A stretch of 64,000 nt of DNA from a virus: IMG/VR virus record IMGVR_UViG_3300017917_003607, positions 1-64,000 of that record. The stretch is one strand, 5' to 3'. Below the pieces are notes generated by a model. It ran no database searches and was not told the DNA's origin. It saw only the letters and a program-made list of their open reading frames with translations. Below, in pieces: positions 1 to 24,987 of the stretch. The position numbers were made by a program, and so were the translations under genes. Numbering within the stretch: position 1 is the first letter of the stretch; the number at the start of each line of letters is the position of its first letter.

Positions 1-392
1 CACTTGTTCCTGAAGAACCTGATGTTCCGCTTGAGCCAGAACTACCTGATGTTCCGCTTGAGCCAGAACTACCTGATGTTCCGCTTGAGCCAGAACTACC
101 TGATGTTCCTGAAGAACCACTGGTTCCTGAAGAGCCTGAACTACCGCTAGTTCCTGAAGAACCACTTGAACCTGAAGTACCTGAGGAGCCACTTGTTCCG
201 CTAGAGCCTGAAGAACCCGAACTGCCTGATGTACCTGAAGAACCTGATGTTCCTGATGAACCACTTGAACCTGAGGTTCCTGATGAACCACTTGAACCTG
301 AAGTTCCTGAAGAACCACTTGAACCTGAAGTGCCGCTTGACCCAGATTTTCCTGAACTACCACTAGACCCTGATGTACCACTAGTTCCTGTT
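1..392. repeat. Coding 9-bp-period repeat (G-S-S/G-T-S) including three exact 27-bp tandem copies at 21-101
   Basis: gatgttccgcttgagccagaactacct x3 with no spacers. Confidence 0.9.
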
Positions 393-1030
393 GTTACTCC
401 CGTGATAGAAATTGTACCACCTGTACTATTAAATAATTCAATGGTGGATGCGCTTAGTACATAGGTACCACCTGTTATTTGAGTGTCTGTACCACGAAAT
501 ATTCTCCATCTAGCGTTATCTCGAGTAACCCCATTTTGTCCCTCAATTGTTGAGCCAGTCCAAGCACCAATGAAATCACGACCTGCTTGAGAACGGCTAT
601 TAATTACTGTGGAATAATCTGTTGTTGTAATTGCCGAACTACCAGTAAGTCCTGTAACCGCATTCCAAAGAGTATCGTAGTTAGGAATTATATATTGGTA
701 TACTAAGTCTGTCTCATACACATAAACTTGCATACCCAATCTTCTTCTTCCTGATGATACATTGTCGGAGTTAAGAGAGATTGAATCGGGAGAAAATGCT
801 GAGCCAGTACCTTTTGTAAAATTAATAGGTATTGTGTTTGCCGATAACTGAATTTGTGATGGGTATGTATCAGCGGTTAGTGTTAAACTTAAATCTGATA
901 AGTGTAAAACTTCCATGTATCCACCCACAGACAAAACTGAAAAATTAGTTCCATAAACGACGGTCCTTGGAACACTGTCTGGACCTGATAATTGTACTGA
1001 GGTTATTGGATTTTTATATGGAATAGACAT
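1..1030 (-). CDS. Virion fibre/adhesin protein with G-S-S/G-T-S repeat; partial, runs off the left edge
   Basis: Not in the ORF track. ATG at 1030 (MSIPYKNPITSVQLSG...), open to the window edge. RRRLGMQVYVYE segment is followed by a long Gly-X-Y Ser/Thr tract. Confidence 0.8.
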   Translation of the reverse strand, partial: MSIPYKNPITSVQLSGPDSVPRTVVYGTNFSVLSVGGYMEVLHLSDLSLTLTADTYPSQIQLSANTIPINFTKGTGSAFSPDSISLNSDNVSSGRRRLGMQVYVYETDLVYQYIIPNYDTLWNAVTGLTGSSAITTTDYSTVINSRSQAGRDFIGAWTGSTIEGQNGVTRDNARWRIFRGTDTQITGGTYVLSASTIELFNSTGGTISITGVTTGTSGTSGSSGSSGKSGSSGTSGSSGSSGTSGSSGSSGTSGSSGSSGTSGSSGTSGSSGSSGSSGTSGSSGTSGSSGSSGTSGSSGSSGTSGSSGTSGSSGSSGTSGSSGSSGTSGSSGSSGTSGSSGTS

Positions 1031-1059
1031 TCGTTTCTAATTTGTAATTACACTTTAAT

Positions 1060-2085
1060 TTATGATTTTGTATCACCTTTGATAAATATTGATGAGTTTA
1101 AAATTGGTAATGGTCCAAGGGATGGATATCCTAAAATATTTGGTAACCATAGAACTCTGTATGTGCCTGATGGGATTGCACAACCTGAAGGAACTGTAAC
1201 ATTTATCCCCGCATTTGTAGTATCGGGAATTCCATTATCAACGATAGATACTGAACATGCCGTACTTCTACCAGCATCTACTGTCATATTTGTCATTGAC
1301 CCCCCTACACCCGCTAATGGTATCCAAATAGAATACGCATATTGTATGTCAGGGTCTACCATAGTTGTTGTAATTTCTACAGTTCCAAAGACATATTGGT
1401 TTTGAGGACATGAGTAAGAGTCGGTACCAACACCTGATGATTGTCTGATTGCACTTTTAATTGTACCAACGTTTGTTATAAAGTTACCTGAAGAACCAGT
1501 CCAACCTGAGTATTGAACATATATTCCCAAATTGCTCGCATAATTTGCACCTGATGGGTATACACCATCATTACCATAACCAAACCATGTAGAACCACTA
1601 TTCGATAGATACTGTCCTAAATCCAATTGAGATGTTGCATCTAAAGGTTCAGGGAATATATATGCGTAGTATGGTGCTTGAGATGGTGTTACTGTCGGTG
1701 TCGGTGTTACAGATGTCGTTGTTGTTGGTGTTACAGATGGTGTTGGTGTTACAGTTACTGTATTTGTTGGCGTTGGAGTGAGTGTTGGTGTTACAGATGG
1801 TGTTGGTGTCGGGGTAGGTGTAGTTAAACATATTGGGTCATTATTGTATACAATAATTGGTAACCCCGCCACCATTTGTGTTCTCGTAGCCGCTGAATAT
1901 ATTGCAGTGGTACCTGTAGAACCACTATAAACAGCAAAAGGTCCTAAGGCGTTGGATTGTGAACTTATTTTTACTAAATAAGTTTCAGAACATGCTGTCG
2001 TTGTAATTTGTGATTGTATTGTTGTTGCCGAACAGGTTGGGTCATTGTTAACAACAAAAATATTGAGGGTATATGCCGATGCCAT
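1060..2085 (-). CDS. Putative virion surface protein with Pro-Thr linker
   Basis: 341 aa; two beta-rich domains joined by a TPTPTPS tract; lies in the fibre cluster. Confidence 0.65.
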   Translation of the reverse strand: MASAYTLNIFVVNNDPTCSATTIQSQITTTACSETYLVKISSQSNALGPFAVYSGSTGTTAIYSAATRTQMVAGLPIIVYNNDPICLTTPTPTPTPSVTPTLTPTPTNTVTVTPTPSVTPTTTTSVTPTPTVTPSQAPYYAYIFPEPLDATSQLDLGQYLSNSGSTWFGYGNDGVYPSGANYASNLGIYVQYSGWTGSSGNFITNVGTIKSAIRQSSGVGTDSYSCPQNQYVFGTVEITTTMVDPDIQYAYSIWIPLAGVGGSMTNMTVDAGRSTACSVSIVDNGIPDTTNAGINVTVPSGCAIPSGTYRVLWLPNILGYPSLGPLPILNSSIFIKGDTKS

Positions 2086-2183
2086 TTAAATCCTTTATAA
2101 CATAAATACAATAAGATTTAAAAGTGGGTTGTAAATTTTAATCAATAATTCTTTTAATTGATTGTTTGAATAAAATAAAATTT

Positions 2184-2843
2184 TTAAACACAAGTACAAT
2201 CGACATAACTACTATGAACTAAGTGGGTTACAAGTCCTGAATAATTACTCAAAACCTCATAGCAACCAGCAATTGGTGCACCCATAGGAGTTGTTTTTAA
2301 TTTTACAAAATCTCCGACATTAGCCGTACCATATGCAATTGTTTTCAAATTCAATGGGTCTGAACATTCTCGTACTAACATCGCATTAAAACCAGACGTA
2401 CTTGGCGTAATTGTTGGTGTAACCGACGGTGACACTGTAACTGTTGGTGTAATTGAAGTTGTAATTGACGGGGTTGGTGTTTGTGTAATTGTTGGAGTTA
2501 CAGAAGGTGTAATAGATGGTGTAGGAGTATTTGTTGGTGTTGGTGTCGGTGATACAGCAGTGATTGAAATACAAAACTGACACTGTACTGAGTTAATGAT
2601 TACATCAAACGGACAAGTTGTATCACAAGTTAGTGTTTTAATTACTTCACATCCATTATTATCAATCATTTTCAAAATTACTTGTGAAGCCCCAACAAAT
2701 ATTGATGGTAAAACAAAAGTTAGTGTTGGTGATGTTGTACTACCTGTACCAATCAAAATACAATTATTTAGGTCCAACCCACACATATAAAATGTGTATG
2801 GTGCGGTTCCCGTTACTGATGTTATGTATAATTTCGCGCCCAT
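2184..2843 (-). CDS. Cys-containing virion accessory protein with Pro-Thr linker; paralog of 6897-7451
   Basis: N-terminal domain shares the VTGxxPY...C...C and IDNNGCE motifs with 6897-7451. Confidence 0.65.
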   Translation of the reverse strand: MGAKLYITSVTGTAPYTFYMCGLDLNNCILIGTGSTTSPTLTFVLPSIFVGASQVILKMIDNNGCEVIKTLTCDTTCPFDVIINSVQCQFCISITAVSPTPTPTNTPTPSITPSVTPTITQTPTPSITTSITPTVTVSPSVTPTITPSTSGFNAMLVRECSDPLNLKTIAYGTANVGDFVKLKTTPMGAPIAGCYEVLSNYSGLVTHLVHSSYVDCTCV

Positions 2844-2972
2844 TTAATTTTCTTCTTTAATTATTGTATAATCCAAAATATTACCGTAAATATCTAACCA
2901 ATCAACACACTCTTGATATGTTTGATATTTTTGAATTACATTACCTGAATTTATTTCAATTATACTATACAT
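2844..2972 (-). CDS. Small hypothetical protein (42 aa), possible fibre-associated chaperone
   Basis: Below the ORF-track cutoff. MYSIIEINSGNVIQKYQTYQECVDWLDIYGNILDYTIIKEEN fills the gap between two genes. Confidence 0.6.
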   Translation of the reverse strand: MYSIIEINSGNVIQKYQTYQECVDWLDIYGNILDYTIIKEEN

Positions 2973-2974
2973 CT

Positions 2975-4771
2975 TTAATAAAATTTAAGAGTTAGGGTCT
3001 GCGTTGCTGCACCAACTGTAGAACCAATGCCTCCCCAGTTTGAGTTGTTAATCCATGGTCTTAAGGCCGCGGTGCTGCTTCCACTACACAAAGCAACATT
3101 TGCAAATTCCACTGCACCATTTGCTGTTCCTCCAGCCCTACAAGTACAACAACCAACATTCCATGTTACACCACTTATTGTAGTTGCAAATGTTATACCT
3201 GTAGTACCCGTTCTCAATGCATTTGCAATTTGTTGAACTTTAACCGAGTCTGTAATTCCAGTATACCCTTGTCCGTTTGAGCTTGTAAAATCAAATTTTG
3301 TGTATGTTCCTGTAAGTTGTTCTCTAAAAGTTGTCCAAGCAGTTTCTATTGTAGTACCAGGCGCTTGACCTGATGTAAATGTTTGTGAGAAAGTAACCGC
3401 TGAAGAAGGTGGTGGAGTTGTACTTGGTGTTACTGTGTTTGTGGGTGTTATTGATGGTGTTACCGTAGTTGTTGGCGTTATTGATGGAGTAACCGTAACC
3501 GATGGTGTAGGTGTTACCGAATTTGTTGGGGTTACAGAATTAGTTGGAGTTATGGTGTTTGTTGGGGTTACTGTAGGTGTTGGTGTTGGTTCTATAAATC
3601 TTGGAGATAAGAAATCATATTGTTGAGTTATTTCAGATGGTGTTAAAGACCTATCATAGTAGTACATGTTTGCAACGTATCCAAATGGTTGACCAGGAAT
3701 GGAACCCCAATAATCATGTCTATTTCCTCCCGCATTATAAGATACTGTACCAACTTGACTTGAGTTAACATAATAGGTACTTCCTGTAGAATTCGCAACT
3801 ACTGTAAGTTGGACCCATGTGTCCACAATTGGTGTAACATCATAACCAGCGTTTATAAAACTTGCTGTGTCATTATCATAGAATCCTAAATTATTTGAAC
3901 CAACCGCAACTAATAATGGGTGGTCATTTGGTGCCGTTCTATATAATGTCCTCCAAGTTGAGGTACCACTCTTTAATCTCACCCAAGAGATGTATGTATA
4001 TCCTGATGTTGGAAGTGTTGGACCTGTTCCAACATTTCTAATATATGTGTTAGAAGAACCATTACAATCAAAACACTTAATTGTATTCAATATTGTATAT
4101 GGTGCATTTGTTAATGTGTGGTTGTAAGTTCCTGGCGATTGTAAATTAACAACAGTTGTTCCTGAACCAGGATAACTTTCAGTAGAATACGCATCAAGTT
4201 GGATTACCAACCCTGAAGTTACAATATTAGGTGTTGGAGTAATTGTTGGAGTTACAGTTGGTGTTGCGGTAGAACTTGGTGTTTGAGTAACTGTTGGAGT
4301 TGGAGTTACTGACTTTGTTGGTGTTGTAGTAACTGTTGGGGTAGGTGTTATAGTAGAACTTGGTGTTTGAGTTACCGTTGGTGTTATTGTTGGGGTAGGT
4401 GTAGGTGTTGGACTAACATTAACAAATGATGTCCAATATCCATTGTTGTTTAAATATGTTTTCGCTGTTGTGGTATCGGTAAAATTCTGCGTTTTAATTA
4501 CAGAATTACAAAGAGCAATAAACTCTTGGTCTGTAATTGTTTTAGTCCTCCAAAACTGAACATATCCAAAACCACCATATGGTGTTGGTTGTGTTCCTCC
4601 ACTTTGTGGATAAGCAATTACATAACCCAAATCCTCATCGGGACCATTCCACCATTGTATACCTGTTGATTCAAAACCACTTGTGGGGACACCAATAGCA
4701 AGGTTACCAACTTGTTCGGTACCTGATATTGTTGAACCTGTATTGTATGCAAATGGTCTTGATGTTGGCAT
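2975..4771 (-). CDS. Multidomain adhesin with LamG/ConA-like lectin domain and Pro-Thr linkers
   Basis: IVTSGLVIQLDA...YPGSGT start and YYYDRSLTPSEITQQY end are typical of phage LamG-like domains; two PT tracts. Confidence 0.75.
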   Translation of the reverse strand: MPTSRPFAYNTGSTISGTEQVGNLAIGVPTSGFESTGIQWWNGPDEDLGYVIAYPQSGGTQPTPYGGFGYVQFWRTKTITDQEFIALCNSVIKTQNFTDTTTAKTYLNNNGYWTSFVNVSPTPTPTPTITPTVTQTPSSTITPTPTVTTTPTKSVTPTPTVTQTPSSTATPTVTPTITPTPNIVTSGLVIQLDAYSTESYPGSGTTVVNLQSPGTYNHTLTNAPYTILNTIKCFDCNGSSNTYIRNVGTGPTLPTSGYTYISWVRLKSGTSTWRTLYRTAPNDHPLLVAVGSNNLGFYDNDTASFINAGYDVTPIVDTWVQLTVVANSTGSTYYVNSSQVGTVSYNAGGNRHDYWGSIPGQPFGYVANMYYYDRSLTPSEITQQYDFLSPRFIEPTPTPTVTPTNTITPTNSVTPTNSVTPTPSVTVTPSITPTTTVTPSITPTNTVTPSTTPPPSSAVTFSQTFTSGQAPGTTIETAWTTFREQLTGTYTKFDFTSSNGQGYTGITDSVKVQQIANALRTGTTGITFATTISGVTWNVGCCTCRAGGTANGAVEFANVALCSGSSTAALRPWINNSNWGGIGSTVGAATQTLTLKFY

Positions 4772-4781
4772 TTATAAAATA

Positions 4782-6869
4782 TTATACTCCTTCGTAAGAA
4801 CCGTTAAATTGTAAACTATCTCCATCACCAAAAGAAAAAGGAAATATCCCTGATACTCCTTCTGATGAATTTGAACCAGCAGATTGAGCAATAATTCCAG
4901 TATAAGTTGTTTGTCCGAAGTATGTTCCATTTACAGTTCCTTGATACCAAGCAAGTCCATTGTTCAGCATTGAACATGGAAACTGTATTGTTTCTGAACT
5001 TGCAGCTTGTATTGGTAAACCGAATTCCCAAGCTCCATTTCCAACTGTTGTTGTAGTACCCAACAGTAATTTTACCCTAACAAATACTGTTTTACCAACC
5101 GTTGTGTAATAACCTTCTAAAGTTCCATTTCCTATAGATGGTTGTGGGGGGCCGCTCTGAGATGTCCAAGTAACAGGATAACTAACCCATGCAGTTGATG
5201 GTACGGTACCGCTTGTTCCGCTTGTTCCACTTGAGCCTGAGCTACCTGAAGTTCCTGAAGAACCAGATTTACCTGAAGAACCGCTTGAACCTGATGTTCC
5301 TGAACTACCTGAACTACCTGATGTCCCTGAACTACCTGAAGTTCCTGAAGAACCACTTGAACCTGAAGTTCCTGATGGTGTTTCTAGCGTTGTTACTAAA
5401 TATGAATAATGTAAAGTACCTTCGGAATAGAAAGTCACCGTTCTGTTTTGATTGTCATTATTATTAACATATAAATCAACAATTATTCTATCAGTAACAT
5501 CAAGAACAGCAGTGGTTGGTAATCCATTAATTTTAATCTCTACTGGTGTTGTATTGTTTGTATCCCACCCAATTTGAACCGCGCTTGATGTAAATAAAGT
5601 AGTTTTAGTACCACCAGTTGTATACTTAGAGACCACATAATATACACTTAAATTATCATTTTGAGTGTTCTTTGTAAAGTAACAGTAAGCATGCCACAAT
5701 CCATTAGGTATTACAACCGCATTTGGTAAACCTGAGTCAGTAATAAAACCCCCATTAACTAAGACATTTTGTTGGTTTGGGGTTAAATTTACCACCACTG
5801 TAGATTCGGGTTGACCGTCAGTAAATTCACCTAATTCTTTATATGGACTTACATCCTGAACGACTGATTGATTGAAAAATAAATTTTGTCCACCTGATAT
5901 ACCATCTTGTCCACTTGTTCCTGATGAACCTGAACTACCTGATGAACCTGAACTACCCGATGTTCCTGATGTCCCTGATGAACCTGAACTACCCGATGTT
6001 CCTGATGAACCTGATGAACTACCAACAGCGACCCCAACTTGTTTGAATATGAAAATTACAGATGGCGATGAAGGTCTTGTTGGTGTTGTTTGGATTGGAA
6101 GTGCGGCAAGTTGAACATCAGCATCATTTGCAGAACAATAAAGTTCAACGTAATCGCCAGCATTTAAATCAAAAATAAATGGGACAAATGGTAATTGATA
6201 CGCGCTGTTTGAAACTAAAGTAATAGTTGATGTTGTACCCGTTGCTGGAGTTCCATTTATAGCAATCCAAAACGAAATGTCTGTTGAAGTACCACCTTGT
6301 GTTCTTTCAACCTGTGCCGAAAAACCGAATTCATATTGACCGTCGTATGGTACTGTAAATCTACTGTTATTTACCAATGATATTCCATATTGATAATCAA
6401 TAGTATTGGCCGTTATTACCGTGGCAACATCTTCACCTATTAGTTGATTGGTTGTATCTGAATATTGTGCAGCCCAGTTAGCTATACCAGCACCACTTGT
6501 ACCTGGTGCACCATTAGTACCACTAGTTCCTGATGTTCCTGAAGAACCACTTGTTCCACTTGAACCTGATGTTCCTGAAGAACCGCTTGAACCTGAGGTT
6601 CCACTAGAACCTGAACTGCCTGATGTTCCTGATGAACCGCTTGAGCCTGATGTTCCTGAACTGCCTGAACTGCCAGATGTTCCTGATGAACCGCTTGAAC
6701 CTGAAGTTCCACTAGAACCTGATGAACCACTAAATTGTTGTGTTAAGGCTGAAAAGGGTATTGAATATGTCACACCAGATGCTACAACGTCATAATTAAC
6801 TATGACCATCAAAGAATCAGGTGAACCTGATGTTGCTAAAGGTAATTGTGATATTGGTAAATTTGCCAT
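4782..6869 (-). CDS. Collagen-like fibre protein: three G-S-S/G-T-S tracts, a C1q/TNF-like domain and a C-terminal tip domain
   Basis: N-terminal PISQLP fibre motif; Gly every third residue in the tracts; FTVPYDGQYEFGFSAQV is C1q/BclA-like. Confidence 0.75.
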   Translation of the reverse strand: MANLPISQLPLATSGSPDSLMVIVNYDVVASGVTYSIPFSALTQQFSGSSGSSGTSGSSGSSGTSGSSGSSGTSGSSGSSGTSGSSGSSGTSGSSGSSGTSGSSGTSGSSGTSGTSGTNGAPGTSGAGIANWAAQYSDTTNQLIGEDVATVITANTIDYQYGISLVNNSRFTVPYDGQYEFGFSAQVERTQGGTSTDISFWIAINGTPATGTTSTITLVSNSAYQLPFVPFIFDLNAGDYVELYCSANDADVQLAALPIQTTPTRPSSPSVIFIFKQVGVAVGSSSGSSGTSGSSGSSGTSGTSGSSGSSGSSGSSGTSGQDGISGGQNLFFNQSVVQDVSPYKELGEFTDGQPESTVVVNLTPNQQNVLVNGGFITDSGLPNAVVIPNGLWHAYCYFTKNTQNDNLSVYYVVSKYTTGGTKTTLFTSSAVQIGWDTNNTTPVEIKINGLPTTAVLDVTDRIIVDLYVNNNDNQNRTVTFYSEGTLHYSYLVTTLETPSGTSGSSGSSGTSGSSGTSGSSGSSGTSGSSGSSGKSGSSGTSGSSGSSGTSGTSGTVPSTAWVSYPVTWTSQSGPPQPSIGNGTLEGYYTTVGKTVFVRVKLLLGTTTTVGNGAWEFGLPIQAASSETIQFPCSMLNNGLAWYQGTVNGTYFGQTTYTGIIAQSAGSNSSEGVSGIFPFSFGDGDSLQFNGSYEGV

Positions 6870-6896
6870 TTTATATAAATATATTTTTTGATTTTA

Positions 6897-7451
6897 TTAT
6901 GCGGGGTTCCAAATTATTTTATCACCACTCTCTTGTAATATGAAATCTCCATTCTCCTGTAATAAGAAGAACGTCTCAAAACCAGATGGTGTTATTGTTG
7001 GGGTTGGAGTGTTGGTTGGAGTATTAGTTGGTGTATTAGTTGGTGTCTTAGTTACAGTGATTGAGGGCGTAACCGTAGGAGAAATAGTTGGTGTTACTGA
7101 TGGTGTAGGAGTGTTGGTTGGTGTAACCGAAATAGATGGTGTTATACTTGGTGTTGGAGATGGTGTAACATCAAATAAACACGGATAGTTTGTTTCATCA
7201 TAAAGAACTACTTGGAATGTGCAATTTTCATCACACATAATTGTTTTCTTTATCTCACATCCATTATTATCAATTAATTTTACCAATATAATTGGTGCAG
7301 TATCAAATAAGGATGATAAATAAAAAACTTGACCTAAAGTATCACCACTAAGTACACCAAGGTATTCACATAATACTTCGAAAAGATTACATACGTAAAC
7401 ATCATACGGAGTACTTCCCGTAACATTTTGTATGATTAATCTCGCTGCCAT
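6897..7451 (-). CDS. Virion accessory protein: Cys domain, PT linker and LLQENG motif
   Basis: Paralog of 2184-2843; ends [18 protein letters not shown]. Confidence 0.65.
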
Positions 7452-9568
7452 TATGTTTCACAATTGATATCATAATTAATTATCAATCCGCTTATGAATT
7501 CAGAATCACTCAATTGGTCCGTAGTTCCCTCACACGCCGACTTCACTTGAATTGTGTTTGTTACTGGATTTACAATATATTCCGCAACACCAGTTATACC
7601 TGATATTAATCCTTCTATTGTATCAACCCATAGACTCTCAGATGGTACATCAGAAATTGTAGTTCCTGTATAAAAATTTTGAGTAAATGTGTTACCCGAA
7701 ACCTTAACAGTTGCAGTAAAAACCGCTGTTGACAAAACACAATTTGTATTTCCCGATGTTAAATCATAAAATCCTTCATTCAACATTGAGCTAATGTCTC
7801 TCTCGTTATTATATGTTGTTTTGAAATTGTCGCTAACAATTGGAATTGTTTGATAACCTGTCACTGTTGGTGTACATGGTACTATAACACTTCTTGTTAA
7901 TGTACAACCACTAGCATCTGTGATGGTCAAATTATATGTTCCACCACTAAGACCTGACAAATTTGGTGAGTTTGGTAATGAATTGTCCGACCATAAATAA
8001 TTAAAAGGTGGTGTACCCCCAACTATTGTTGTTACTATACTTCCCTCATTATTACCTGAACCACAGTTAGTTGCAACCATACCAAAATCTAAAGATTCTG
8101 AATCAGATATTACAAAATTATTTATTACCGAGCAATTGTCTTGGTCTCTGACTTGTAACTGATAAACACCAGATGTAAGTCCGTTAAAGGTTACTGCAGA
8201 TTGAATAATATCGATATACTGTGTTATTGAAACATCATTTTTGGTTAGTATAAAATCTAAAACTCCCGTGTATCCCGAACCAACAATTACATTACATGTA
8301 CCATTATCTAAACCACAAGTAGTCCCTGTGGTACTTGATGTTACTGAAAATTTATCGTTAGTATATATTGTAACCTCTTGTTGGTAAGTACAATTAGAAC
8401 CGTTACTAATTATAACTGTGTAAGTTCCTGATTCTAAATCAGTGTATGTTTGTTTAGTTAAGTTAGAAACTATTTGTTGGGATGATGAGTCAGGCTTAAT
8501 AAGTGTGTACGTAAAAGGTGTATTACCAATAACGTTTACTGTTATAGTCCCGCCACTCACCGAGCATGTTGAATTTGTTGCGGATATACCAACAACTGAA
8601 AAACCAGCTGACGCCTGTAGATATGTTGTACCCGTTACATTACATAAAGTGGCATCTGTAACAGTTACTATTGTTGTTCCAGGGCTAAATCCTGAGAATG
8701 TTACGTCAGTGGCATAAGATATTAATGTACTTCCATTACTCGCGGAATAATAAAATGGTCCCGTTCCTCCTGTTACAATAATTCTAACAGTACCATCACC
8801 TGAAAAACAAGATGGGCTTGTTGTTTGAATTGATGCAATTGTTAATGGGTCTGCGTTGTTAACTACAGCATCCTTTACAACTTGACATCCGCTTGAATCA
8901 CTAACCGTTACGGTGTATGTGTCGGCAGTAAGACCTGTAATTGTCGTACCTGTAGAGCCGTTATTCCAAAGGTATGTAAATGGAGGAGTTCCTGTTAATC
9001 CTGTTATTTGGACTTTACCAACATTGCCATAACAATTAGTGTCGTTAACAATATAAAAACCATAATCTAATGGTGTTGAAGGTAATACAATTATTGATTC
9101 TGAATATCCTGAACACCCACCATAATCTTCATAGTAGGCATCATATATACCACTCGGAAGTGAGTTAAATTCTAAAGTACCATCAGTTGTTGAACCTGAT
9201 TTAACTACGGTGGAACCCGAAAATAATTTAATAGTAATTGGGTAAGCTGTTGAAGCTCCTGTTATTGTTATTATTCCATTGTCTAATCCGCAAGTTGTTG
9301 CAGATACACTCGCAACATCTAAACACCCACCACTCGAGACAATTGCATTTATGTAAAATTCATTGTTTACATCACCCAACGCATCGTTAGCTCTAATGAT
9401 GTAAGCACCTGCCGACAATCCTGTTTTAGTTGAGCCTGTACCTAAGTTTGGTGTTACAAAATCGATAGTATATGGTTCAACACCACCCGAAATGGTTACA
9501 TTAATAATTCCCGAACCATTGTTCGTACAATCACCAGTAACATAAAGATTATAACCAAAAGCCGCCAT
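7451..9568 (-). CDS. SprB-repeat-containing virion protein
   Basis: Repeated G.I.V...GGT.PY/F.Y.W...GL..GTY.VT..D..GC units. Confidence 0.75.
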
Positions 9569-13436: not shown

Positions 13437-13505
13437 ATGTTTTTTTTACTCTTTAGTTTTTGCTGTTTAGCGTGTTATTCATAAATACTCAATTTAAAAA
13501 AATCC

Positions 13506-14630: not shown

Positions 14631-15484
14631 GGATTAACATATTCATACCATTTAATTGGGGCGGTTCTAGTCCCTCTTCTGTCTGAAAAAGAATTGACAT
14701 CTGTTTCATTATCAAATACTTGATATTGATAGGTATCATAATCTAATTTCAATACGTAATAAAAATATTCTTCTTGAGAAAAATTAAATTTATTTTGTAA
14801 CTCACCTTGGGGTTGTTTAATCATTCTTTTAAATTGTCCAATGCCAGCGTCATAATATTTACAACTCATATATAAAGTACCAGCATCTATAAAGTCTCTA
14901 TTTTTTAACCAATAAACATAATATCCTTCTTTATCACCTGTGTGATTAAGAGAAAATTTAGGTTTTCTAATTTTAACAATATTTTGTCCTATAACCGCAT
15001 CAAGGGTTTCGCCTTGTTGTACAGGTATTATAATTGTTAATAAAATTTGTTGACTTGTACTTTTAGTTGAATCATAAAAATCTAATTTAAAATAAGATTT
15101 TGAAAATACATTTTCATAATAGTAAATTTGTTGGTTGGTATAACCGTTGGCTCTATAATCAATAACCCAATTATCATTATTTGTAGTTGCGGTTACTGAT
15201 GAATTTGTAAGAGCAGAATAAAAATAAAACTCGTAGTTAATTGATGTATTGTTTGCTGGTCCATGAACCACACCTCTCCAAGCAGAATGTGAGTATCTTA
15301 TAGTTTCTAAATCATCTATTGGATTGATGCTTGCTCTTATAATTTCGTTTTCATATTCATCAATACTTTCGTTAACACCTGTAAAATCAAAAACAGATGA
15401 TATTGGTATTTTAATTCCAATATCATTAGTTGCACCAGTATTTGTTAGGCTGATTGGGTTGTATCTAAATCTGTAATTATTCAC
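14627..15484 (-). CDS. Hypothetical baseplate-region protein
   Basis: 285-aa ORF overlapping both neighbours. Confidence 0.55.
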   Translation of the reverse strand: MNNYRFRYNPISLTNTGATNDIGIKIPISSVFDFTGVNESIDEYENEIIRASINPIDDLETIRYSHSAWRGVVHGPANNTSINYEFYFYSALTNSSVTATTNNDNWVIDYRANGYTNQQIYYYENVFSKSYFKLDFYDSTKSTSQQILLTIIIPVQQGETLDAVIGQNIVKIRKPKFSLNHTGDKEGYYVYWLKNRDFIDAGTLYMSCKYYDAGIGQFKRMIKQPQGELQNKFNFSQEEYFYYVLKLDYDTYQYQVFDNETDVNSFSDRRGTRTAPIKWYEYVNP

Positions 15485-17240
15485 AATCGTCTTTTATTGG
15501 TTGTGTTACCACGGGTGGGTTAAAGTTTAGGTTTTTATACGGTGTCGATAACATAAACGTTACATTTGTGAAAGGATAGTGTGCGTCATTTAAATATGGG
15601 TAGTTAACACCTAAATCCCCATCAGCATCACCGTATGGTATTATATCACGCCATATCCATCTATTTAAATTTTCAGAATAATAAGCCCAAGGTTTTCTTG
15701 TTGTTGAAACTTGACCTGTTGATTCTGAGAGAGTTGAATAAAAATCTCTGAGTTTTATTGGATAATGTGGTTGATAAAAATATCCTGGTGGGTTATCTGA
15801 ACCATTATCCTCTGTTTGGTACAATGCGTCGTTAAATGTTATTTTATGTTGACAGTTTGAAACTACGTATTCTAATTGTTCAATTTCATTATACTCACAG
15901 AAGTCGCCAACAAGTACATCTTCTTTTTTTAGTGGGCTATTATAGAAAAATCTATATGTTTTATTATTAGAGAATCTTGTATATGACTCTACAGGAATCT
16001 CTTCTAAACTGTCTATATTATTTATTTTCCACCAATCATCAATAGAATCTTCATGAAAGTTAAAATTCCAACCATACTGAAGTGCATTATTCGTATTAGA
16101 TAATGGTTTATTGAACCATCCATAATAACCTTTATTAACAATAGTTAGATAATATCTTGTAATTGGTTTTAAATTATTATCATAGTATTCGTCAATATTA
16201 AAATCATTTCTAAACGTATAACTATATGTTTGTGTACCCTCTTTTATTGAAACTCTTTGTTGTAGGTTTGGTGTAAGAGCGGAGTATTCAAGTTTTTGTT
16301 GTGTGCTAAATGCGTTGTTTTCAAATGCTAAATTATTAACATTTGAATCAGTTTCATCTGTTATAATTTTATGTAGTCTAACATAGTATCTTGATTTTGT
16401 TTCTGCAGAGTTTTCTATGTTTACTATTCTTTTAAAAGTTCCCGTAACCCCGTTAACAAATGTTGTACCTGTATATCCAATATCAACTATCGAAAAACTT
16501 GTTTCGTTATTTGAAAATCCAGGTTCACCAACAACGTCAACCCTAAAAGTTTTAATTCCATTATATTCAATTGATAACTCAACAAATTGTGAAACTGTCA
16601 AATTATGATTACCACCACATCTAAAAGTTATATATTTACTTCCGTTAAAGACATTATTGATAATCGTAAAAGGAATTCCATCCATAGCTTTAAATGTTAT
16701 GGTATTACCACTTAATTGTTTGTCAACATATGACATTCTTTGTTCTGTAATTGATGAAAACGGGTAACTTAAATATACCCCCCAATTATATGTTGACGCA
16801 CTTTGTGGTAGAACTCTAATGTGTGGATTATCATAATCGGTCCTTATGAAACTGAATTCATTGTATTGCGGATATCCATTCCATCTTAATCCAAAAGTAT
16901 CAGGTACTCTTTCAAAATTATTAAAAAGGGTTTGGTTTTTTTCCAAAACCTCTATAGGGTTAGTTAAAAATAAGAAATTTTTATAATTGTCATAATCTGT
17001 GGAGCCAATAATTGAATTTGAAAAAATGTTTGTGAGTTTACCACTTATTCTGAATATTGACGAGTTTTGCCTTTCAACCTCTGATTGTGTTAGTAAGTTC
17101 ACATTTCTAGTGCGGTCCGATTCAATTAATTCTTTTTGGTCAGATACAAACTCAGTAGGAATAGATATTATTCTTTCAGTCGCCCCTTTGTATCTGAGGT
17201 TTCCTTTAATTATTGTTATATCACTTTGATACGATGCCAT
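15477..17240 (-). CDS. Hypothetical baseplate-region protein
   Basis: 587-aa ORF, translationally coupled. Confidence 0.55.
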   Translation of the reverse strand: MASYQSDITIIKGNLRYKGATERIISIPTEFVSDQKELIESDRTRNVNLLTQSEVERQNSSIFRISGKLTNIFSNSIIGSTDYDNYKNFLFLTNPIEVLEKNQTLFNNFERVPDTFGLRWNGYPQYNEFSFIRTDYDNPHIRVLPQSASTYNWGVYLSYPFSSITEQRMSYVDKQLSGNTITFKAMDGIPFTIINNVFNGSKYITFRCGGNHNLTVSQFVELSIEYNGIKTFRVDVVGEPGFSNNETSFSIVDIGYTGTTFVNGVTGTFKRIVNIENSAETKSRYYVRLHKIITDETDSNVNNLAFENNAFSTQQKLEYSALTPNLQQRVSIKEGTQTYSYTFRNDFNIDEYYDNNLKPITRYYLTIVNKGYYGWFNKPLSNTNNALQYGWNFNFHEDSIDDWWKINNIDSLEEIPVESYTRFSNNKTYRFFYNSPLKKEDVLVGDFCEYNEIEQLEYVVSNCQHKITFNDALYQTEDNGSDNPPGYFYQPHYPIKLRDFYSTLSESTGQVSTTRKPWAYYSENLNRWIWRDIIPYGDADGDLGVNYPYLNDAHYPFTNVTFMLSTPYKNLNFNPPVVTQPIKDDCE

Positions 17241-20200
17241 TATAAATCAATTAAATTTCTCTTAACAAATATGTCATATGCCGTTTTACCCGCCTTTAAT
17301 CCAAAATAAAAATGGAATGGAGCCCCAACCATTATTTCATTTGGACTGCCAGGGTCGGCGAATCCATCAAAGGTAAATCCTGTTACTACTCCTTTTGAGT
17401 CGGTAAGTCCACTTGAATCGTAAATATATCCAGGTCTTTGTGTTGTTGGATTTTTTACAGAACTTTTATAGTATGTACCATCATTTAATCGGTCTATTCC
17501 TTGGTATGGTGTAATTACAAACTTATTTGGGTCGTCTGTCAACCACTCATTTTTTTCCGAACCAAATATACTTATTTTACCATCAATCACTGTTTGATTA
17601 TCTAACTTCCATCTATACATCGGTACAATTTGTGATTTAATACCAAATGTATCATAAGCAAATTTAGTTGGTGTATCGATAAATATTTGACGACCAGGTG
17701 TTATATAATCTCTAGTTGTTGTACTTGCGGTAAAAAACACACCAATAGTGGCATCAGGTCTACCATCATAAAAAAGATTTTCATCTTTATATGTTTCAGG
17801 TGAAAATGGAGTGACCCCAATTTCACTATTTATACTATTCAATTGTGCAAAATCACCATCTATTTTTTTACCATTTCTACTAAAAAGTTGAGATACACTT
17901 CCTGATTTAGCTGAAAACATTAATTGTAAAAATTTAGCATTTGCCAATCTGCTTACCACAAAAAATTGTGCCAAGTCAGAAATACTGTTATATGAACTAG
18001 GTTTCAAGGTGTCCATATAGTATCCTTGAAATTCTGGTTTGGCGCAAACGAATTTTATTAAGTTGTCTTTCGGTCCCAAGTCAACAATCGTTGTTGGGTT
18101 CCCTAAGAAGTATTTGTTAGAACCAATTTTAGGGTCTGTTTGACCACTATCTTTTCCTATAAATTTTCCTTCTATTTGATTAAATGGTGATGACCTATAA
18201 AAGAAAGAATTATTTTCTAATCTAAATGTAATTTTATCTTTACAAAAATCGTAATTTCCAAAAGCGTTTGGTCCCGCGCCAGGTCTTGAGGTTGTATCAA
18301 GGCCTCGATAAATTCTGTCGTTTTGGAATCCTGGCATATACAATACACCATTTACCCATTGGTTTGTGAATGTCATTCCAAAAATATTTCTACACAAAGC
18401 AAAACCTAAAATGTATCTTGCTTTCCATTCTGAAAATACTTCCAAATCACCAGCGATTGCTAAATCTCTTTCACAAACAACATAACATCCTTTTACTACT
18501 TTAGGGAATCCTTGCACACCGCCATTATCATATACAGGATTTGGTTTTGGTTTAATTCGTAAAGCCTGACCTGGTAATTGTTCGTAGGCACCCAATGGTA
18601 CAATTGAGTCACAACTAAACGAACTTAACACCGAGGTTACTTGCGAACCGTAGTCTTCTTGGAAATCTTCGGATTGTCCTCTACTAAAGTCATTTGCATT
18701 TGCAACCGCAACCAAAGGAACATCCGCATATCCTTTATCGGGTACTACATACATTGCAAACGCTTTGTTTTGAGCCAATACAAAATTATTATCAAACGCA
18801 TCAGACCTTGGTAGTCTGTCAGTCCTCATTACTATGTTCACATTTGAAGACATGTTAAGTGTGTTACCCGTTGGGGTATAAACGCTTCTATAATATTTAC
18901 TATCACCAACGTCTTCATTTCTTTCGTTTTTTCGTTTGTATTCACCATCATCGTATTTCAAGTAATAACCTACAGGTGTTTTGAAAAATACTCTTGCCAT
19001 TTCTGAACCACCGCCAACATATTCAAATGGGTAATATCCATCAATACCTGGTGTTAAGAATTTATTACCTTCTTTATCGTTACCAGTATTTTTACTACCA
19101 TTATAAGAACTATAAAGTCTATGGTTATTAGTTGTAAACGCGGAATATCTCCAATTTTTTTCTGTTGTTGTTTGTGTTGAAGGTGTGAAAAAATATGATG
19201 GATAGAAAATTTGTGTTCCAACATTTGAGGTATAATCTGTGTGTTGTTTTAAGTTTAAATCAGGTTGTATTGGTATATTTAATTTGTATTCCAAATCCGT
19301 GACCATAGTACCTTCTTTAGTACCAAAAACTCTTGATACATCAATTTTAGTTCTTTGCCTAGGCGAATATGGGTCAACACCTTTCATCATTACAACCGCC
19401 ACTAAATTATTTCTTATTTCTTGAGGAATTTGGTCAATAGCAATTTGTTTATCAACCCCATTACAAAATGAGTTACCAATTACCCTATCATTTTCTTCAT
19501 CTCTAAAAGCCCACGCCACATTCATTTCTCCCTTTATTACTCTTCGATAAAATGAATTATTATAGTAGGAATAATCAATAGTATTACCATTAACTATTTG
19601 ACTTAATTGTAATAATGTATATCCTGTTACAATTTGATAATATTCAATATCCGATGGAAAATTATAAGATGTAACACCACTGTATAAGTTTTGTTGAATT
19701 GTGAATTGTTTAGTTATTGGTATTAAATTACTTGAGTTGCTTGGGTCCGCATATTGTATTGTAATTTTTGTAGTTCCTAAAGTTGGTGTAGAACCAGTTA
19801 CGTTTCTAGTGCCTAATAAGTTTTTTTCTGATGTTACACCTGAAACATTTATGTCTTTAGTATTATTTGCCGAAACAAATGATAACATAGTACCCGCACT
19901 AAACGTAGATAAAAATCCTCTATCACAAAGAACAACCAAAGGTTGGTCTTCGTAAAAAGCGGCATTGGTGTAAGATGAAACAGTTGCACCATTACCTGAG
20001 TAATTTGGGTAAATTTTAATTCTATTACTCATACCACCTGAAGTGTTATTAAAATAGTGTGCCTTTGTGTTATATAAGTTTACTCTTTCAGGTATTGGTA
20101 GTGTATATTGTTGTTTATCCTCTGTTGCACAATCATCCCCATTACCTGTTTGGTCAGGGTCAAGTTTACCCGATGTCCAATAATCATTATTCCTAAATTC

Positions 20201-22630
20201 ATATCTAGGTGTTCTAGCTCCATCGGCTTCACTATCTGAATCTTTATCATCTCTACCCGCAGCAATTTGACCATACCCTTGGGATATAAGAACTTCAGTA
20301 AATGGTCCTTCAGTACCATATGGTTGATAAATTGATGGTGTATTAATGTCAGCTAAATAACTTGTATTTATTTCACCAATTGGTGGTCCGTCAGCAACTT
20401 CATAATCACCACAATCACATGAAGAACAATCAGGGTAGGTAATCATAGGAAACTTTATAGGTCCTAATCTCAATCTTGTAATTTTTTTGAAAAATGCACC
20501 TGTAAGGACTCCAACCGCAGCCCACACTAATAGTTCTAAACTTTCTCTCAAAATAGAACCTAATACAGGTCCACCAGCATTTATTAAACCAGCGATTACC
20601 ACACCTGTAGTAACCACCTTATAACCACAATACGCAATAAAAAAGGCGGCGATGAAAACTGCAAAATTATTCCATAAAAATTTTACTAAACTATAAACAG
20701 GTATTAAAATGAAAGCTAAAATACTAATTATTTGAAATAAGCTTTGGATTACTAAAAATAACAAATCAAAGTTTCTAACACCGTCGTTTACGGGAAATTT
20801 GTTTACTTCGCTCTCACAACTTCTATCTAATATTTCTTTAATTGATAAAAATCCACCTGAATTTTTTCCTTTCCTATATTCATCAATTAACTGTGCCGTT
20901 GTATAAACTTTATTGTATGTGAATTCATAGAAAAAATCTTTACACGATATTGCCTCTTGTTTATCAGGATAATCATTCCAATTCAATGAAAAGGAATATG
21001 ATTTCTGTAATAAAGCTTTTCTATAATCCAATCTTGTAAAATTCAACCTAACACTGTAGTATGAATTGAAAGTTTGTGTTCCCGAACCAAAAGTTATTGT
21101 TTTTCTTTTCTTTTGTAAAATAATCTTTAACTGACCTCCGTTTGGTATATCTAACCACTTTGAATTTACTTTTTCAAAACTGTCGGTTGCGTTTGGTCCT
21201 TTGATATAAAACTCAAGTTTCTCGTACTGTCCTTCGACTTTATCAAGAACTAAAGTTGTACCTTGTGGGTTATTAAATGGTTCGGTAATTTCTTCTGTTT
21301 GAAGAGACTCGTTAGTAAATGTAAAGGTTTCGTATGTGTCTACAATTTTATTTGGGTCGTCAGTACTGTTTTCCCACCCGTACTCCTTAATGTTTGGTAT
21401 AAGGTAATTAGCTCGTTGTAACTCCCCTTTTGGATTAAATGCTTGTAGGTTCAAAAGACCAGGACCTATTAAACTTTCACTTGTTTGAATTGCACCTAAT
21501 TCTTTTTCACCATCTTCCCACTTTATTTTAAATCTGTACTTACCTTTTGTTGGTATACCAATTTTTGGGTCATTTGATAATGTTAATTCTCCAAATTCAT
21601 TTGTTGTTACATAATCTAAATTCATTGGGACATCGACAACAAATGCGCCGTTTTCATCAATAACTTTACCACCTTGTTCCAACTGATATTGTTCTAAGAT
21701 TGGGTCTCCATCGGCATCTGAACGTATTGTTTGTCTTATCGCTAATATTCTACCAGGACCTGCAACCATACCACATAGGTCACCTTGTTCAGATTTTGGT
21801 TTACAACTTTTTCTCAAATACGTTTCCTTACTTGAGGACATTATTGACCCCATGAAAGTCGCAACAGGTTCTATTGTAATGTTTGACTCCCTCAAATCAA
21901 AATCGACACGGGTAATTCCAACATCACACTGTCCTTGTACACCCCAAAAACTTGAGATAGCAACAGACTTTGTTTGTGTTACAATTTGTGGTAAAGAAGC
22001 TAAATCTTCAGATGTTTTAAATTGTGCACCATCAAATTGTTTTTCATTGGCTCTACCCATTCTAATTAGGTCCGTTGGTCTCAACGAAAAACAACCCATG
22101 TCAGATAAGTCAACATCCAAAAATATTTGTTGGTTTCCTAAAGGAACTCCTACAATCATGTAATCACCAGATTCATTTGTCTTTACTGTATACTTGTAGT
22201 ACTTGTCATAGATTTTAAGAACTTCTTTTCTTGTTAAAACATCTTCCCTTGTTGGAAATGTTCCTGTGGCTGCATGTCCATCATATGATGGGCTATATGG
22301 AAGAAGGTTATATCTATAACCATCTTCATTTTTGTCAGTAATACTTTTGTAAGGGTATAGTGTGGAAATTACAGGGTCGTTCTCGTCCAAATCATCCAAA
22401 GGAACAAAAACGGAAACTCGTGCGTTCGGTACCCCAAAACCACCATTGGCAACAACTCTTCCAACAATAACACCATAATCAGCACAAAAACGTTGGTATA
22501 CATCAGATTGAGTTAACTTAAGTGATAATACCTCCAAGAAATCAAAATCTTGGTCTATCTGTACTCTTATTGTTTTATCTGAACCAGGTGTACCATCAAC
22601 AGACGTTCTTATCCTATAACTTTTCGGCAT
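17240..22630 (-). CDS. Very large baseplate-associated protein with an internal hydrophobic (TM-like) segment
   Basis: 1796 aa, directly downstream of the gp6-like gene; about 90-aa hydrophobic stretch followed by CSSCDC. Confidence 0.6.
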   Translation of the reverse strand: MPKSYRIRTSVDGTPGSDKTIRVQIDQDFDFLEVLSLKLTQSDVYQRFCADYGVIVGRVVANGGFGVPNARVSVFVPLDDLDENDPVISTLYPYKSITDKNEDGYRYNLLPYSPSYDGHAATGTFPTREDVLTRKEVLKIYDKYYKYTVKTNESGDYMIVGVPLGNQQIFLDVDLSDMGCFSLRPTDLIRMGRANEKQFDGAQFKTSEDLASLPQIVTQTKSVAISSFWGVQGQCDVGITRVDFDLRESNITIEPVATFMGSIMSSSKETYLRKSCKPKSEQGDLCGMVAGPGRILAIRQTIRSDADGDPILEQYQLEQGGKVIDENGAFVVDVPMNLDYVTTNEFGELTLSNDPKIGIPTKGKYRFKIKWEDGEKELGAIQTSESLIGPGLLNLQAFNPKGELQRANYLIPNIKEYGWENSTDDPNKIVDTYETFTFTNESLQTEEITEPFNNPQGTTLVLDKVEGQYEKLEFYIKGPNATDSFEKVNSKWLDIPNGGQLKIILQKKRKTITFGSGTQTFNSYYSVRLNFTRLDYRKALLQKSYSFSLNWNDYPDKQEAISCKDFFYEFTYNKVYTTAQLIDEYRKGKNSGGFLSIKEILDRSCESEVNKFPVNDGVRNFDLLFLVIQSLFQIISILAFILIPVYSLVKFLWNNFAVFIAAFFIAYCGYKVVTTGVVIAGLINAGGPVLGSILRESLELLVWAAVGVLTGAFFKKITRLRLGPIKFPMITYPDCSSCDCGDYEVADGPPIGEINTSYLADINTPSIYQPYGTEGPFTEVLISQGYGQIAAGRDDKDSDSEADGARTPRYEFRNNDYWTSGKLDPDQTGNGDDCATEDKQQYTLPIPERVNLYNTKAHYFNNTSGGMSNRIKIYPNYSGNGATVSSYTNAAFYEDQPLVVLCDRGFLSTFSAGTMLSFVSANNTKDINVSGVTSEKNLLGTRNVTGSTPTLGTTKITIQYADPSNSSNLIPITKQFTIQQNLYSGVTSYNFPSDIEYYQIVTGYTLLQLSQIVNGNTIDYSYYNNSFYRRVIKGEMNVAWAFRDEENDRVIGNSFCNGVDKQIAIDQIPQEIRNNLVAVVMMKGVDPYSPRQRTKIDVSRVFGTKEGTMVTDLEYKLNIPIQPDLNLKQHTDYTSNVGTQIFYPSYFFTPSTQTTTEKNWRYSAFTTNNHRLYSSYNGSKNTGNDKEGNKFLTPGIDGYYPFEYVGGGSEMARVFFKTPVGYYLKYDDGEYKRKNERNEDVGDSKYYRSVYTPTGNTLNMSSNVNIVMRTDRLPRSDAFDNNFVLAQNKAFAMYVVPDKGYADVPLVAVANANDFSRGQSEDFQEDYGSQVTSVLSSFSCDSIVPLGAYEQLPGQALRIKPKPNPVYDNGGVQGFPKVVKGCYVVCERDLAIAGDLEVFSEWKARYILGFALCRNIFGMTFTNQWVNGVLYMPGFQNDRIYRGLDTTSRPGAGPNAFGNYDFCKDKITFRLENNSFFYRSSPFNQIEGKFIGKDSGQTDPKIGSNKYFLGNPTTIVDLGPKDNLIKFVCAKPEFQGYYMDTLKPSSYNSISDLAQFFVVSRLANAKFLQLMFSAKSGSVSQLFSRNGKKIDGDFAQLNSINSEIGVTPFSPETYKDENLFYDGRPDATIGVFFTASTTTRDYITPGRQIFIDTPTKFAYDTFGIKSQIVPMYRWKLDNQTVIDGKISIFGSEKNEWLTDDPNKFVITPYQGIDRLNDGTYYKSSVKNPTTQRPGYIYDSSGLTDSKGVVTGFTFDGFADPGSPNEIMVGAPFHFYFGLKAGKTAYDIFVKRNLIDL

Positions 22631-24522: not shown

Positions 24523-24528
24523 TTAATA

Positions 24529-24987
24529 TTAAATATTGATAATTATAAAATCCCTTGACTGAAATGTATTATCACTAATAGTATAGTCAATCCTCATTTT
24601 AGCGGTATATTCTTCAGTCCCTCTTCCCGCAACCCTGTAAACACCACTACCTAAATTTTCTGTATTGAGTGTTCCCTCAGACTCATACTCGTTATAAGGT
24701 AATATTATTATATCATTAATAATAAGGTTAGGAATATATTTTGCAACATTATCTCTAATGTCATCCTTCAAAGCTTCAAATGTTATACCGTCTAAAGGTT
24801 CAAAAATAAATTCGAATATTTTTGTACCAAAATCAGGTAAATAATATCTACTACCTTTTCTAGTTAAAATTAAATGAACTAAATTACTTCTTATTTCCTC
24901 ATCGGGATTTTGTGATAATGAAACATAGTCCCCTTTTATTGAATTTCTGAAGGGAAAATTTATACCGTATGTAACTCCATTAGCCAT
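24529..24987 (-). CDS. Baseplate wedge / sheath initiator (T4 gp25-like)
   Basis: LILTRKGSRYYLPDFGT..FIFEP motif; start revised to MANG at 24987, just after a TATTTAT motif. Confidence 0.9.
   Translation of the reverse strand: MANGVTYGINFPFRNSIKGDYVSLSQNPDEEIRSNLVHLILTRKGSRYYLPDFGTKIFEFIFEPLDGITFEALKDDIRDNVAKYIPNLIINDIIILPYNEYESEGTLNTENLGSGVYRVAGRGTEEYTAKMRIDYTISDNTFQSRDFIIINI

Follow-up and report, generated by a model that had tools for sequence, protein, structure and literature searches.

To our knowledge, chemical evidence for virion glycosylation by phage-encoded enzymes is so far limited to a few mycobacteriophages, and none of it has yielded a defined acceptor motif. In the general O-glycosylation system of Bacteroidota, exported proteins are modified outside the cytoplasm with lipid-linked glycans at the acceptor D-(S/T)-(A/I/L/V/M/T), and in the autotransporter heptosyltransferases (Aah/TibC, BAHT) a cytoplasmic glycosyltransferase (GT) reads a strand-loop-strand acceptor on a beta-rich surface protein. 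In Che8-type mycobacteriophages (Freeman et al. 2023, as summarized in PMC12619734), measured virion O-glycans sit on the C-termini of capsid and tail-tube subunits. The chlorovirus PBCV-1, a eukaryotic virus, glycosylates its capsid protein Vp54 autonomously with virus-encoded enzymes, through N-linkage to Asn (PMC7019647, PMC4691112). Here we describe a short motif, [ST]-[GA]-x-T, in tail proteins encoded by the single IMG/VR virus record IMGVR_UViG_3300017917_003607 (111,691 bp), together with a sugar operon of the same record. The window, that is, the whole stretch analyzed, comprises positions 1-64,000 of this record; coordinates above 64,000 follow the numbering of the 111,691-bp record and lie outside the window. 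CheckV completeness of the record is ~36%, and we therefore regard it as a jumbo-phage fragment. A complete 345-kb relative with terminal repeats (IMGVR_UViG_3300037466_003310) is syntenic across the entire record.

The locus resembles each of these systems in part. As in the mycobacteriophages, the GTs are phage-encoded and the proposed targets are the phage's own virion proteins, modified in the cytoplasm; in contrast to them, capsid and tail tube lack the motif here, and the candidates are tail-periphery proteins with a dispersed four-residue word known from sequence alone. It shares with PBCV-1 many virus-encoded soluble GTs and a GDP-mannose 4,6-dehydratase, the lack of machinery of the endoplasmic reticulum or membrane type, and non-classical acceptor sites, whereas the motif contains no Asn and its carriers are bacteriophage tail proteins. 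Like Bacteroidota O-glycosylation, it involves a short three- to four-residue Ser/Thr word on many unrelated proteins, but the Bacteroidota acceptor word is not enriched here (0.98-fold) and no membrane protein is predicted in the operon. With the autotransporter heptosyltransferases it shares the idea of a cytoplasmic GT reading a short loop between beta-strands; the carrier folds differ, and no TIGR04414 match was found.

Enrichment of the [ST]-[GA]-x-T motif in outer tail proteins

We counted motif occurrences in 13 open reading frames (ORFs) at positions 1-22630, a set fixed beforehand by coordinates, with collagen-like (G-X-Y)n tracts and Pro/Thr linkers masked. The refined motif, [ST]-[GA]-x-T, occurred 92 times against 17.6 expected (z 18.9; maximum of 500 shuffles, 34). 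A first-pass annotation had proposed the looser form [S/T]-[G/A]-x-[T/S] as a virion-wide glycosylation sequon, and this form likewise exceeded composition-preserving shuffles, with 109 occurrences against 31.8 (z 14.5). When [ST]G.T was counted in 15 proteins, 99 sites were found where 17.5 were expected (z 20). When all 24,000 three-position patterns of the masked set were scanned without prior bias, TG.T (35 vs 6.5), SG.T (30 vs 5.1), and SA.T (20 vs 2.7) took the first three places, with p values of 5e-15 to 1e-11; the fourth-best pattern reached only about 1e-4. Protein by protein, global and 30-residue local shuffles gave z values of 3-14 for the looser motif in most ORFs of positions 1-22630 (3-10 with local shuffles alone), and ten ORFs of the record were individually significant at p < 1e-3. 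Against the global shuffle, the proteins encoded at 2184-2843, 6897-7451, and 12525-13436 were not enriched. The hand counts of the first-pass annotation also held: the looser motif occurs 10 times in the 374-aa protein (with SGQT, SGWT, TGLT, SGGT, and TGLT within residues 25-53), 25 times in the SprB-repeat protein, 11 times in the 985-aa protein, and 12 times in the 1796-aa protein, and replication genes are near zero (RNR 1, DnaB 0, PolB 1). A short four-residue word is thus ~5 times commoner than chance in proteins of the outer tail, baseplate, and fibres.

Variant by variant, SG.T, TG.T, and SA.T were each enriched 5.4-5.9-fold and SG.S 3-fold, and TG.S, SA.S, and TA.S stayed at about 1-fold. 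Position 4 of the motif is essentially Thr, which corrects the originally proposed sequon at that position. Permutations of the same composition (G[ST].T, T.G[ST], [ST].GT, and [ST]G..T) reached 1.0-1.5-fold, and either half of the motif alone 0.85-0.9-fold. The residue before the motif is usually aromatic or aliphatic, with Trp, Tyr, Val, and Phe preferred at position -1; elsewhere the flanks hold no more than 0.27 bits per position, hardly above a null anchored on random Thr. Other words were not enriched, namely D[ST][AILVMT] (24 vs 24.6, 0.98-fold), N-x-S/T (1.13-fold), [ST]P, G[ST].G[ST], and [TVIL]SA, and since known sequons show no excess, general Ser/Thr richness does not account for the signal. 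Motif positions use codons as the background does, which places selection at the protein level and rules out a DNA-level cause. In our literature searches, we found no description of an [ST]-[GA]-x-T motif.

An artefact of composition or repeats, in which Ser/Thr/Gly richness, collagen-like tracts, Pro/Thr linkers, or duplications inflate the counts, is in our estimate very improbable. Two proteins do owe most of their looser-motif matches to GSS/GTS tracts, and one protein has a duplicated domain. After masking, however, the pooled z is still 19, local shuffles give z values of 3-10 for most ORFs of positions 1-22630, permuted motifs remain at about 1-fold, and ten ORFs lie at p < 1e-3; masking, local shuffles, and permuted motifs together ruled this explanation out. 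A hidden common domain was likewise ruled out, by all-against-all BLASTP and by the flank information content. The carriers are non-homologous in that comparison, save for one pair with a shared N-terminus and one internal duplication, and the motif is common to at least 12 non-homologous proteins without an extended flank signature. In many unrelated outer tail proteins, the motif therefore behaves as a short linear tag on which selection acts.

The SGSSGTSG tracts in the same region had been read as overlapping concatemers of the motif. They turned out to be collagen-like repeats that match Pfam Collagen (PF01391; E 1e-19 to 4e-23; 67.4 and 81.3 bits vs a cut-off of 27.2) and consist of GSS and GTS triplets only, in tracts of 129, 81, 42, and 57 residues. 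These tracts match the looser motif 42 and 49 times and the refined motif 0 times, and they are a separate, also hydroxyl-rich, feature. As in other collagen-like phage tail fibres, the GSS/GTS tracts match both Pfam Collagen and the PHROG collagen-like tail-fibre families. In BclA of Bacillus, Thr-rich collagen-like regions are O-glycosylated; the tracts here differ in being built solely of Ser/Thr triplets and in lacking the refined motif.

When we examined the distribution of the motif over the particle, it was not confined to positions 1-22630: the tail sheath and the 878-aa, 634-aa, and 497-aa proteins were enriched as well. The looser motif was at background in the major capsid protein (4 vs 2.2) and absent from the portal, the tail tube, and the gp6/gp25-like wedge proteins, and two giant proteins of 2119 and 1568 aa were also at background (4 vs 4.1 and 6 vs 5.0, respectively). 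Given the background counts in capsid, portal, tube, wedge, and the two giant proteins, the pattern is one of the tail periphery and not of the whole virion, which is at odds with the proposed decoration of the whole particle surface.

Conservation of the motif in related phages

We searched databases with two of the carrier families, which returned 1,627 matches for the 634-aa family and 914 for the 374-aa family. Each match listed was enriched, with 8-23 sites against 0.5-3.4 expected in the 634-aa family and 3-10 against 0.4-1.2 in the 374-aa family. Syntenic fibre modules on IMG/VR contigs show the same motif pattern. More than 100 homologues, with identities as low as 43%, retain individual sites, and those of the 374-aa protein are kept in 53-117 of 121 family members, the exception being SGWT at residue 30 (3 of 121); some sites are restricted to close relatives. 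At fixed sites, Ser and Thr are exchanged at position 1 and Gly and Ala at position 2, with position 3 free. One such site reads TGVT, TGIT, TAVT, TAST, TAIT, or TAFT and is kept in all 41 sequences. Of the homologues with less than 70% identity, 67-77% keep the position-4 Thr, compared with 39% for other Thr residues, and 72-84% keep the position-1 Ser/Thr, compared with 53-54%; position x shows no conservation. Purifying selection acts on the hydroxyl positions of the motif alone.

The signal was then compared with that of control genomes. Whole-genome observed/expected ratios were 3.53 for this record (10 ORFs at p < 1e-3) and 1.72 for the 345-kb relative (4 ORFs), and 1.15 for T4, 1.47 for Flavobacterium phage immuto, 1.30 for Microcystis phage Mel-JY01, and 1.35 for Rhodothermus phage RM378, each of the last four with 0 ORFs at that threshold. 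In genome-wide unbiased scans, SG.T, TG.T, and SA.T were the top three patterns of the record, and SG.T and TG.T ranked 2-3 in the 345-kb relative; nothing comparable appeared in T4, and immuto showed only a 2-fold excess of TG.T. The four control genomes rule out a general property of myovirus fibres, and the motif signal is clade-specific. A search of 50,697 phage records found no homologue of the 634-aa protein, and none of its 1,627 matches belongs to a cultured phage. A 'moraphage' lineage with aquatic members, predicted Bacteroidota hosts, and four core GT orthogroups has been described (PMC12619734). The clade of this record may be that lineage, and the predicted hosts of its relatives may be Bacteroidota (PMC12619734).

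Two separate observations were made in the control genomes. In immuto, two fibre-like ORFs just upstream of the sheath (140382-144586) show a weak motif excess (10 vs 4.0 and 5 vs 1.4). In RM378, a different word, [VILY]-T-x-S, is over-represented across a dozen large ORFs (VT.S, 36 vs 9.2; p 2e-11).

A sugar operon with conserved flanks and a variable center

As the first-pass annotation had stated, no GT gene lies within the window; the GT and sugar-nucleotide genes to be sought elsewhere in the genome were found 4.9 kb past its end. A block of ~19 kb with GT and sugar genes occupies 68.9-87.6 kb of the record, starting at 68,889, with matches to GT2, GT4, GT11, GT1-like, and PF13712 families at 68.9-86.8 kb. 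Four conserved GTs were recognized: a 404-aa GT-B enzyme (68889-70103), a 546-aa fusion of a GT-A domain (PF13712) with GT4 (71775-73415), a 351-aa GT (84965-86020), and a 269-aa GT2 (86023-86832). The 351-aa ORF matches the glucosyltransferase 8xsg (E 1.5e-7; PMC12159676), and PDB sequence searches with the 404-aa and 546-aa GTs were uninformative. The cassette between the conserved genes contains a GT2, a GT11 fucosyltransferase-like gene, three FkbM methyltransferases, a GDP-mannose 4,6-dehydratase, a DegT-like gene, a hexapeptide acyltransferase, FabH, and PhyH. A hydropathy scan found no membrane-spanning segment in any operon ORF of this record, which covers ~36% of the genome. GT60 (PF11397) and BAHT (TIGR04414) were considered as readers of the motif and set aside, as neither had a match in the record at E <= 0.1. 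The DegT/aminotransferase-like ORF at 80280-80879 encodes 199 aa, about half the family length, and a similar short form occurs in immuto (30% identity).

The gene order is constant in 69 related loci, with the 634-aa family gene first. The left flank consists of this gene, five small genes, the 404-aa GT, an exonuclease, a dUTPase, and the 546-aa GT; the right flank of PhoH, the 351-aa GT, the 269-aa GT2, and a homologue of ORF 86829-87590, for which no family match was found. The middle cassette holds roughly 8-12 genes, most of them without a BLAST match to this genome. This arrangement of conserved flanks around a hypervariable cassette resembles the architecture of O-antigen loci. In all 58 loci with enough flank beside the 634-aa homologue, both conserved GTs were present together with a motif-rich neighbor, and four outgroup phages had neither the conserved GTs nor the motif. 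With regard to enzymes that would make a hydroxymethyl-pyrimidine acceptor for DNA hypermodification, no ThyA or ThyX homologue was found in the record (~36% of the genome). A single gene of the ThyA family occurs in the complete 345-kb relative; its LPPCH and PFN motifs are canonical, and it resembles an ordinary thymidylate synthase.

Interpretation of the motif

An O-glycosylation sequon is the most economical reading of a tag that is order-specific, context-free, and present on unrelated outward-facing proteins. The statistics are those of a tag read in trans, since only its defining positions are constrained and it is confined to a clade that keeps four soluble GTs by a swappable cassette. 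We therefore give about an even chance to the view that a conserved phage GT reads [ST]-[GA]-x-T as an O-glycosylation sequon on the outward-facing proteins of tail, baseplate, fibres, and sheath insertion. One of the four conserved soluble GTs would recognize the tag in the cytoplasm, on proteins that are folded or still folding, and the same enzyme would add the first sugar to its Ser/Thr. The hypervariable cassette would then build a lineage-specific, partly O-methylated 6-deoxyhexose glycan. Sugar attachment, the residue that carries the sugar, and the GT that reads the tag are here inferred. The broader proposal, that a widespread uncultured aquatic jumbo-phage lineage O-glycosylates its own tail periphery at hydrophobic-[ST]-[GA]-x-T and uses the cassette to build strain-specific glycans, giving tail 'serotypes', is more tentative, and we hold it at somewhat below even.

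Several observations weigh against a glycosylated tag. GTs and motif occur together within one clade only (58 of 58 loci linked), and the link therefore amounts to a single evolutionary contrast. The sites are strongly conserved in position, as would also be expected of a structural turn motif. Capsid and tube, with the background counts given above, are undecorated, unlike the mycobacteriophage precedent. Cytoplasmic phage proteins of the record show no avoidance of the motif (29 vs 20.3; the ratio of 1.43 equals the control-phage baseline). The operon head has a sigma70-like promoter, as does the gp32 gene, and not the TATTTAT word of most structural genes, which is not decisive on timing. 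The conserved GTs flank dUTPase and exonuclease genes, and their substrate could be DNA or host lipid-linked glycans. Finally, the sugar on the motif is a proposal from sequence patterns. Pooled over 60-77 relatives, the families of the two conserved GTs, a DUF3721 protein, and ORF 57138 had 0-1 sites against 13-16 expected, and over 80 related loci the two conserved GTs stood at 1 against about 15 each; avoidance by cytoplasmic proteins was nevertheless not counted, given the ratio of 1.43 in the record and the fact that the pooled rows are close kin whose ancestors would mostly have had zero sites.

Structure prediction by AlphaFold2 (AF2) bears on a purely structural role, in which hydrophobic-[ST]-[GA]-x-T forms a loop-to-strand or hairpin turn in beta-rich tail proteins and the operon serves phage DNA or host glycans. 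The models were mediocre: that of the 634-aa protein had a mean predicted local distance difference test score (pLDDT) of 65, and that of the 374-aa protein was poor, with a pLDDT of 60 and a predicted template modelling score (pTM) of 0.33. In both, the sites are predicted mostly in loops right before a beta-strand or in hairpin turns, a further point that weighs against the sequon. A turn motif would also fit the hydrophobic preference at position -1 and the high conservation of individual sites; Thr is a good beta-former, and Gly and Ala suit a tight turn. Some sites of the SprB-repeat carrier follow the spacing of its repeats, the motif is not avoided in cytoplasmic proteins, and the dUTPase and exonuclease genes between the conserved GTs and the single-clade GT-motif link can be counted on the same side. 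Yet the beta-rich fibres, baseplates, and sheaths of T4, immuto, Mel-JY01, and RM378 show no enrichment, and the beta-rich tube, gp6-like wedge, and capsid of the same virion lack the motif. At least 12 non-homologous carriers share it with no extended flank signature, and about half of the 18 sites of the 634-aa model fall in low-confidence loops. As for DNA as a target of the operon, the sole ThyA-family gene in the complete relative looks canonical. We consider a purely structural role the main rival reading, and less likely than the sequon.

Foldseek returned only weak jelly-roll/lectin-like matches for the 634-aa model (best E 1.6e-3). The modelled jelly-roll/lectin-like fold of this family carries conserved Cys-rich loops, with C288, C290, C300, C360, and C366 among the invariant residues.

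Short-motif statistics indicate that something reads the word, and not what reads it, so that another trans-acting reader was also considered: phosphorylation, acylation, hydroxylation, a fibre-assembly chaperone, or a host factor or lectin. The acyltransferase, FabH, and PhyH dioxygenase of the operon would suit such a reader. The set of acyltransferase, FabH, DegT-like, and GMD genes, however, fits sugar-nucleotide tailoring. No kinase or chaperone candidate was seen among the scanned ORFs, which is weak evidence because the record covers only ~36% of the genome. We regard a reader of this kind as improbable.

If the tag is indeed O-glycosylated, it would be the first O-glycosylation sequon to be defined on a bacteriophage particle, and glycosites would become predictable from sequence in the carrier families. 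It would explain the sugar operon with its conserved flanks and variable center, imply tail glycan 'serotypes' comparable to bacterial O-antigens, and suggest that the host-recognition apparatus of abundant aquatic phages is shielded by glycans or adheres through them. If the motif is structural instead, it would still be a lineage-specific signature, useful for recognizing the outer tail proteins of this clade.

Motif-bearing genes and their genomic setting

All genes at positions 1-22630 lie on the minus strand, directly downstream of the gp25-like (24529-25059) and gp6-like (22702-24522) baseplate wedge genes, also on the minus strand and both supported by PHROG and Pfam matches. The two wedge genes (22702-25059) have 0 motif sites and form the border of the motif-bearing module. 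The module codes for two collagen-like tail fibres, a LamG protein, an SprB-repeat protein, and several Pro/Thr-linker proteins, and several of its large proteins had no family match in Pfam/PHROG searches.

The first gene (2-1030, minus strand), whose ORF overruns the contig start, encodes a collagen-like tail-fibre protein (Pfam Collagen, E 9e-19; PHROG tail-fibre families) that combines a 129-residue GSS/GTS tract with a globular part bearing 9 refined sites. It is followed on the same strand by Pro/Thr-linker proteins of 341 aa (1060-2085; 7 refined sites vs 1.2 expected) and 219 aa (2184-2843; 1 refined site). The 598-aa LamG protein (2975-4771, minus strand; Laminin_G_3, Pfam PF13385, E 1.9e-10) has two Pro/Thr linkers and 12 refined sites against 2.8 expected. 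The second collagen-like tail fibre (4782-6869, minus strand; 695 aa; Pfam Collagen and PHROG) contains three GSS/GTS tracts with 0 refined sites and 5 sites that all lie in its globular parts. Next on the minus strand is a 184-aa Pro/Thr-linker protein (6897-7451; 2 refined sites vs 0.1), whose N-terminus is homologous to that of the 2184-2843 protein.

The 705-aa SprB-repeat protein (7451-9568, minus strand; Pfam SprB, E 8e-14) carries 20 refined sites against 4.2 expected, some spaced in step with its repeats, and its syntenic IMG/VR homologues carry 21 against 3.9. A baseplate/fibre-module protein of 985 aa (9568-12525, minus strand) has 8 refined sites against 1.7, and its 1949-aa homologue in the 345-kb relative has 24 against 4.6. 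The neighboring 303-aa protein (12525-13436, minus strand) belongs to the same module and, with 0 refined sites and 1 looser match, is an internal negative. Further minus-strand genes encode the 374-aa protein (13506-14630; 9 refined sites vs 0.9), a 285-aa protein (14627-15484; 3 refined sites), and a 587-aa protein (15477-17240; 5 vs 0.6). In the 1796-aa baseplate protein (17240-22630, minus strand; 11 refined sites vs 2.4), every refined site falls within residues 911-1750. Residues 620-675 of this protein (window 20606-20773) form two adjacent hydrophobic segments with Kyte-Doolittle window means up to 2.5, the strongest membrane-like pair of the record; three other ORFs have one weaker segment each.

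Beyond this module, the 1057-aa tail sheath (48693-51866, minus strand; PHROG tail sheath) has 8 sites, seven in a lineage-specific insertion (residues 103-412) and one at residue 651. Its conserved core (residues 1-102 and 761-1057), which aligns with T4 gp18 and the sheaths of other phages, has 0 sites, and sheath homologues outside the clade carry the motif at expectation. An 878-aa Pro/Thr-linker protein with an internal domain duplication (61818-64454, minus strand, running past the window end) has 18 sites against 3.7. Outside the window, the 634-aa protein (64454-66358), the most motif-dense of the record, has 17 sites against 1.2, and the 497-aa protein has 7 against 0.9. Five tail-module proteins (1060-7451 and 61818-64000) contain long Pro/Thr linkers (TPTPTP..., 57-291 masked residues per protein), a second type of hydroxyl-rich tract that could also be glycosylated.

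Among the remaining structural genes are the tail tube (47037-47525; 0 motif sites), the gp23-like major capsid protein of far-T4 type (95979-97829; 616 aa), and, elsewhere in the record, portal and terminase genes. The capsid protein aligns with relatives in two pieces only (about 55% covered) and therefore appears to contain a large lineage-specific insertion, in which the motif is not enriched. For 31 ORFs, most of them structural genes, the word TATTTAT is found 7-90 nt before the start; it is a candidate late-promoter word. A sigma70-like word, TTGATT-N16-TATAYT, precedes the gp32-like gene (window 32145) and the first GT (68840).

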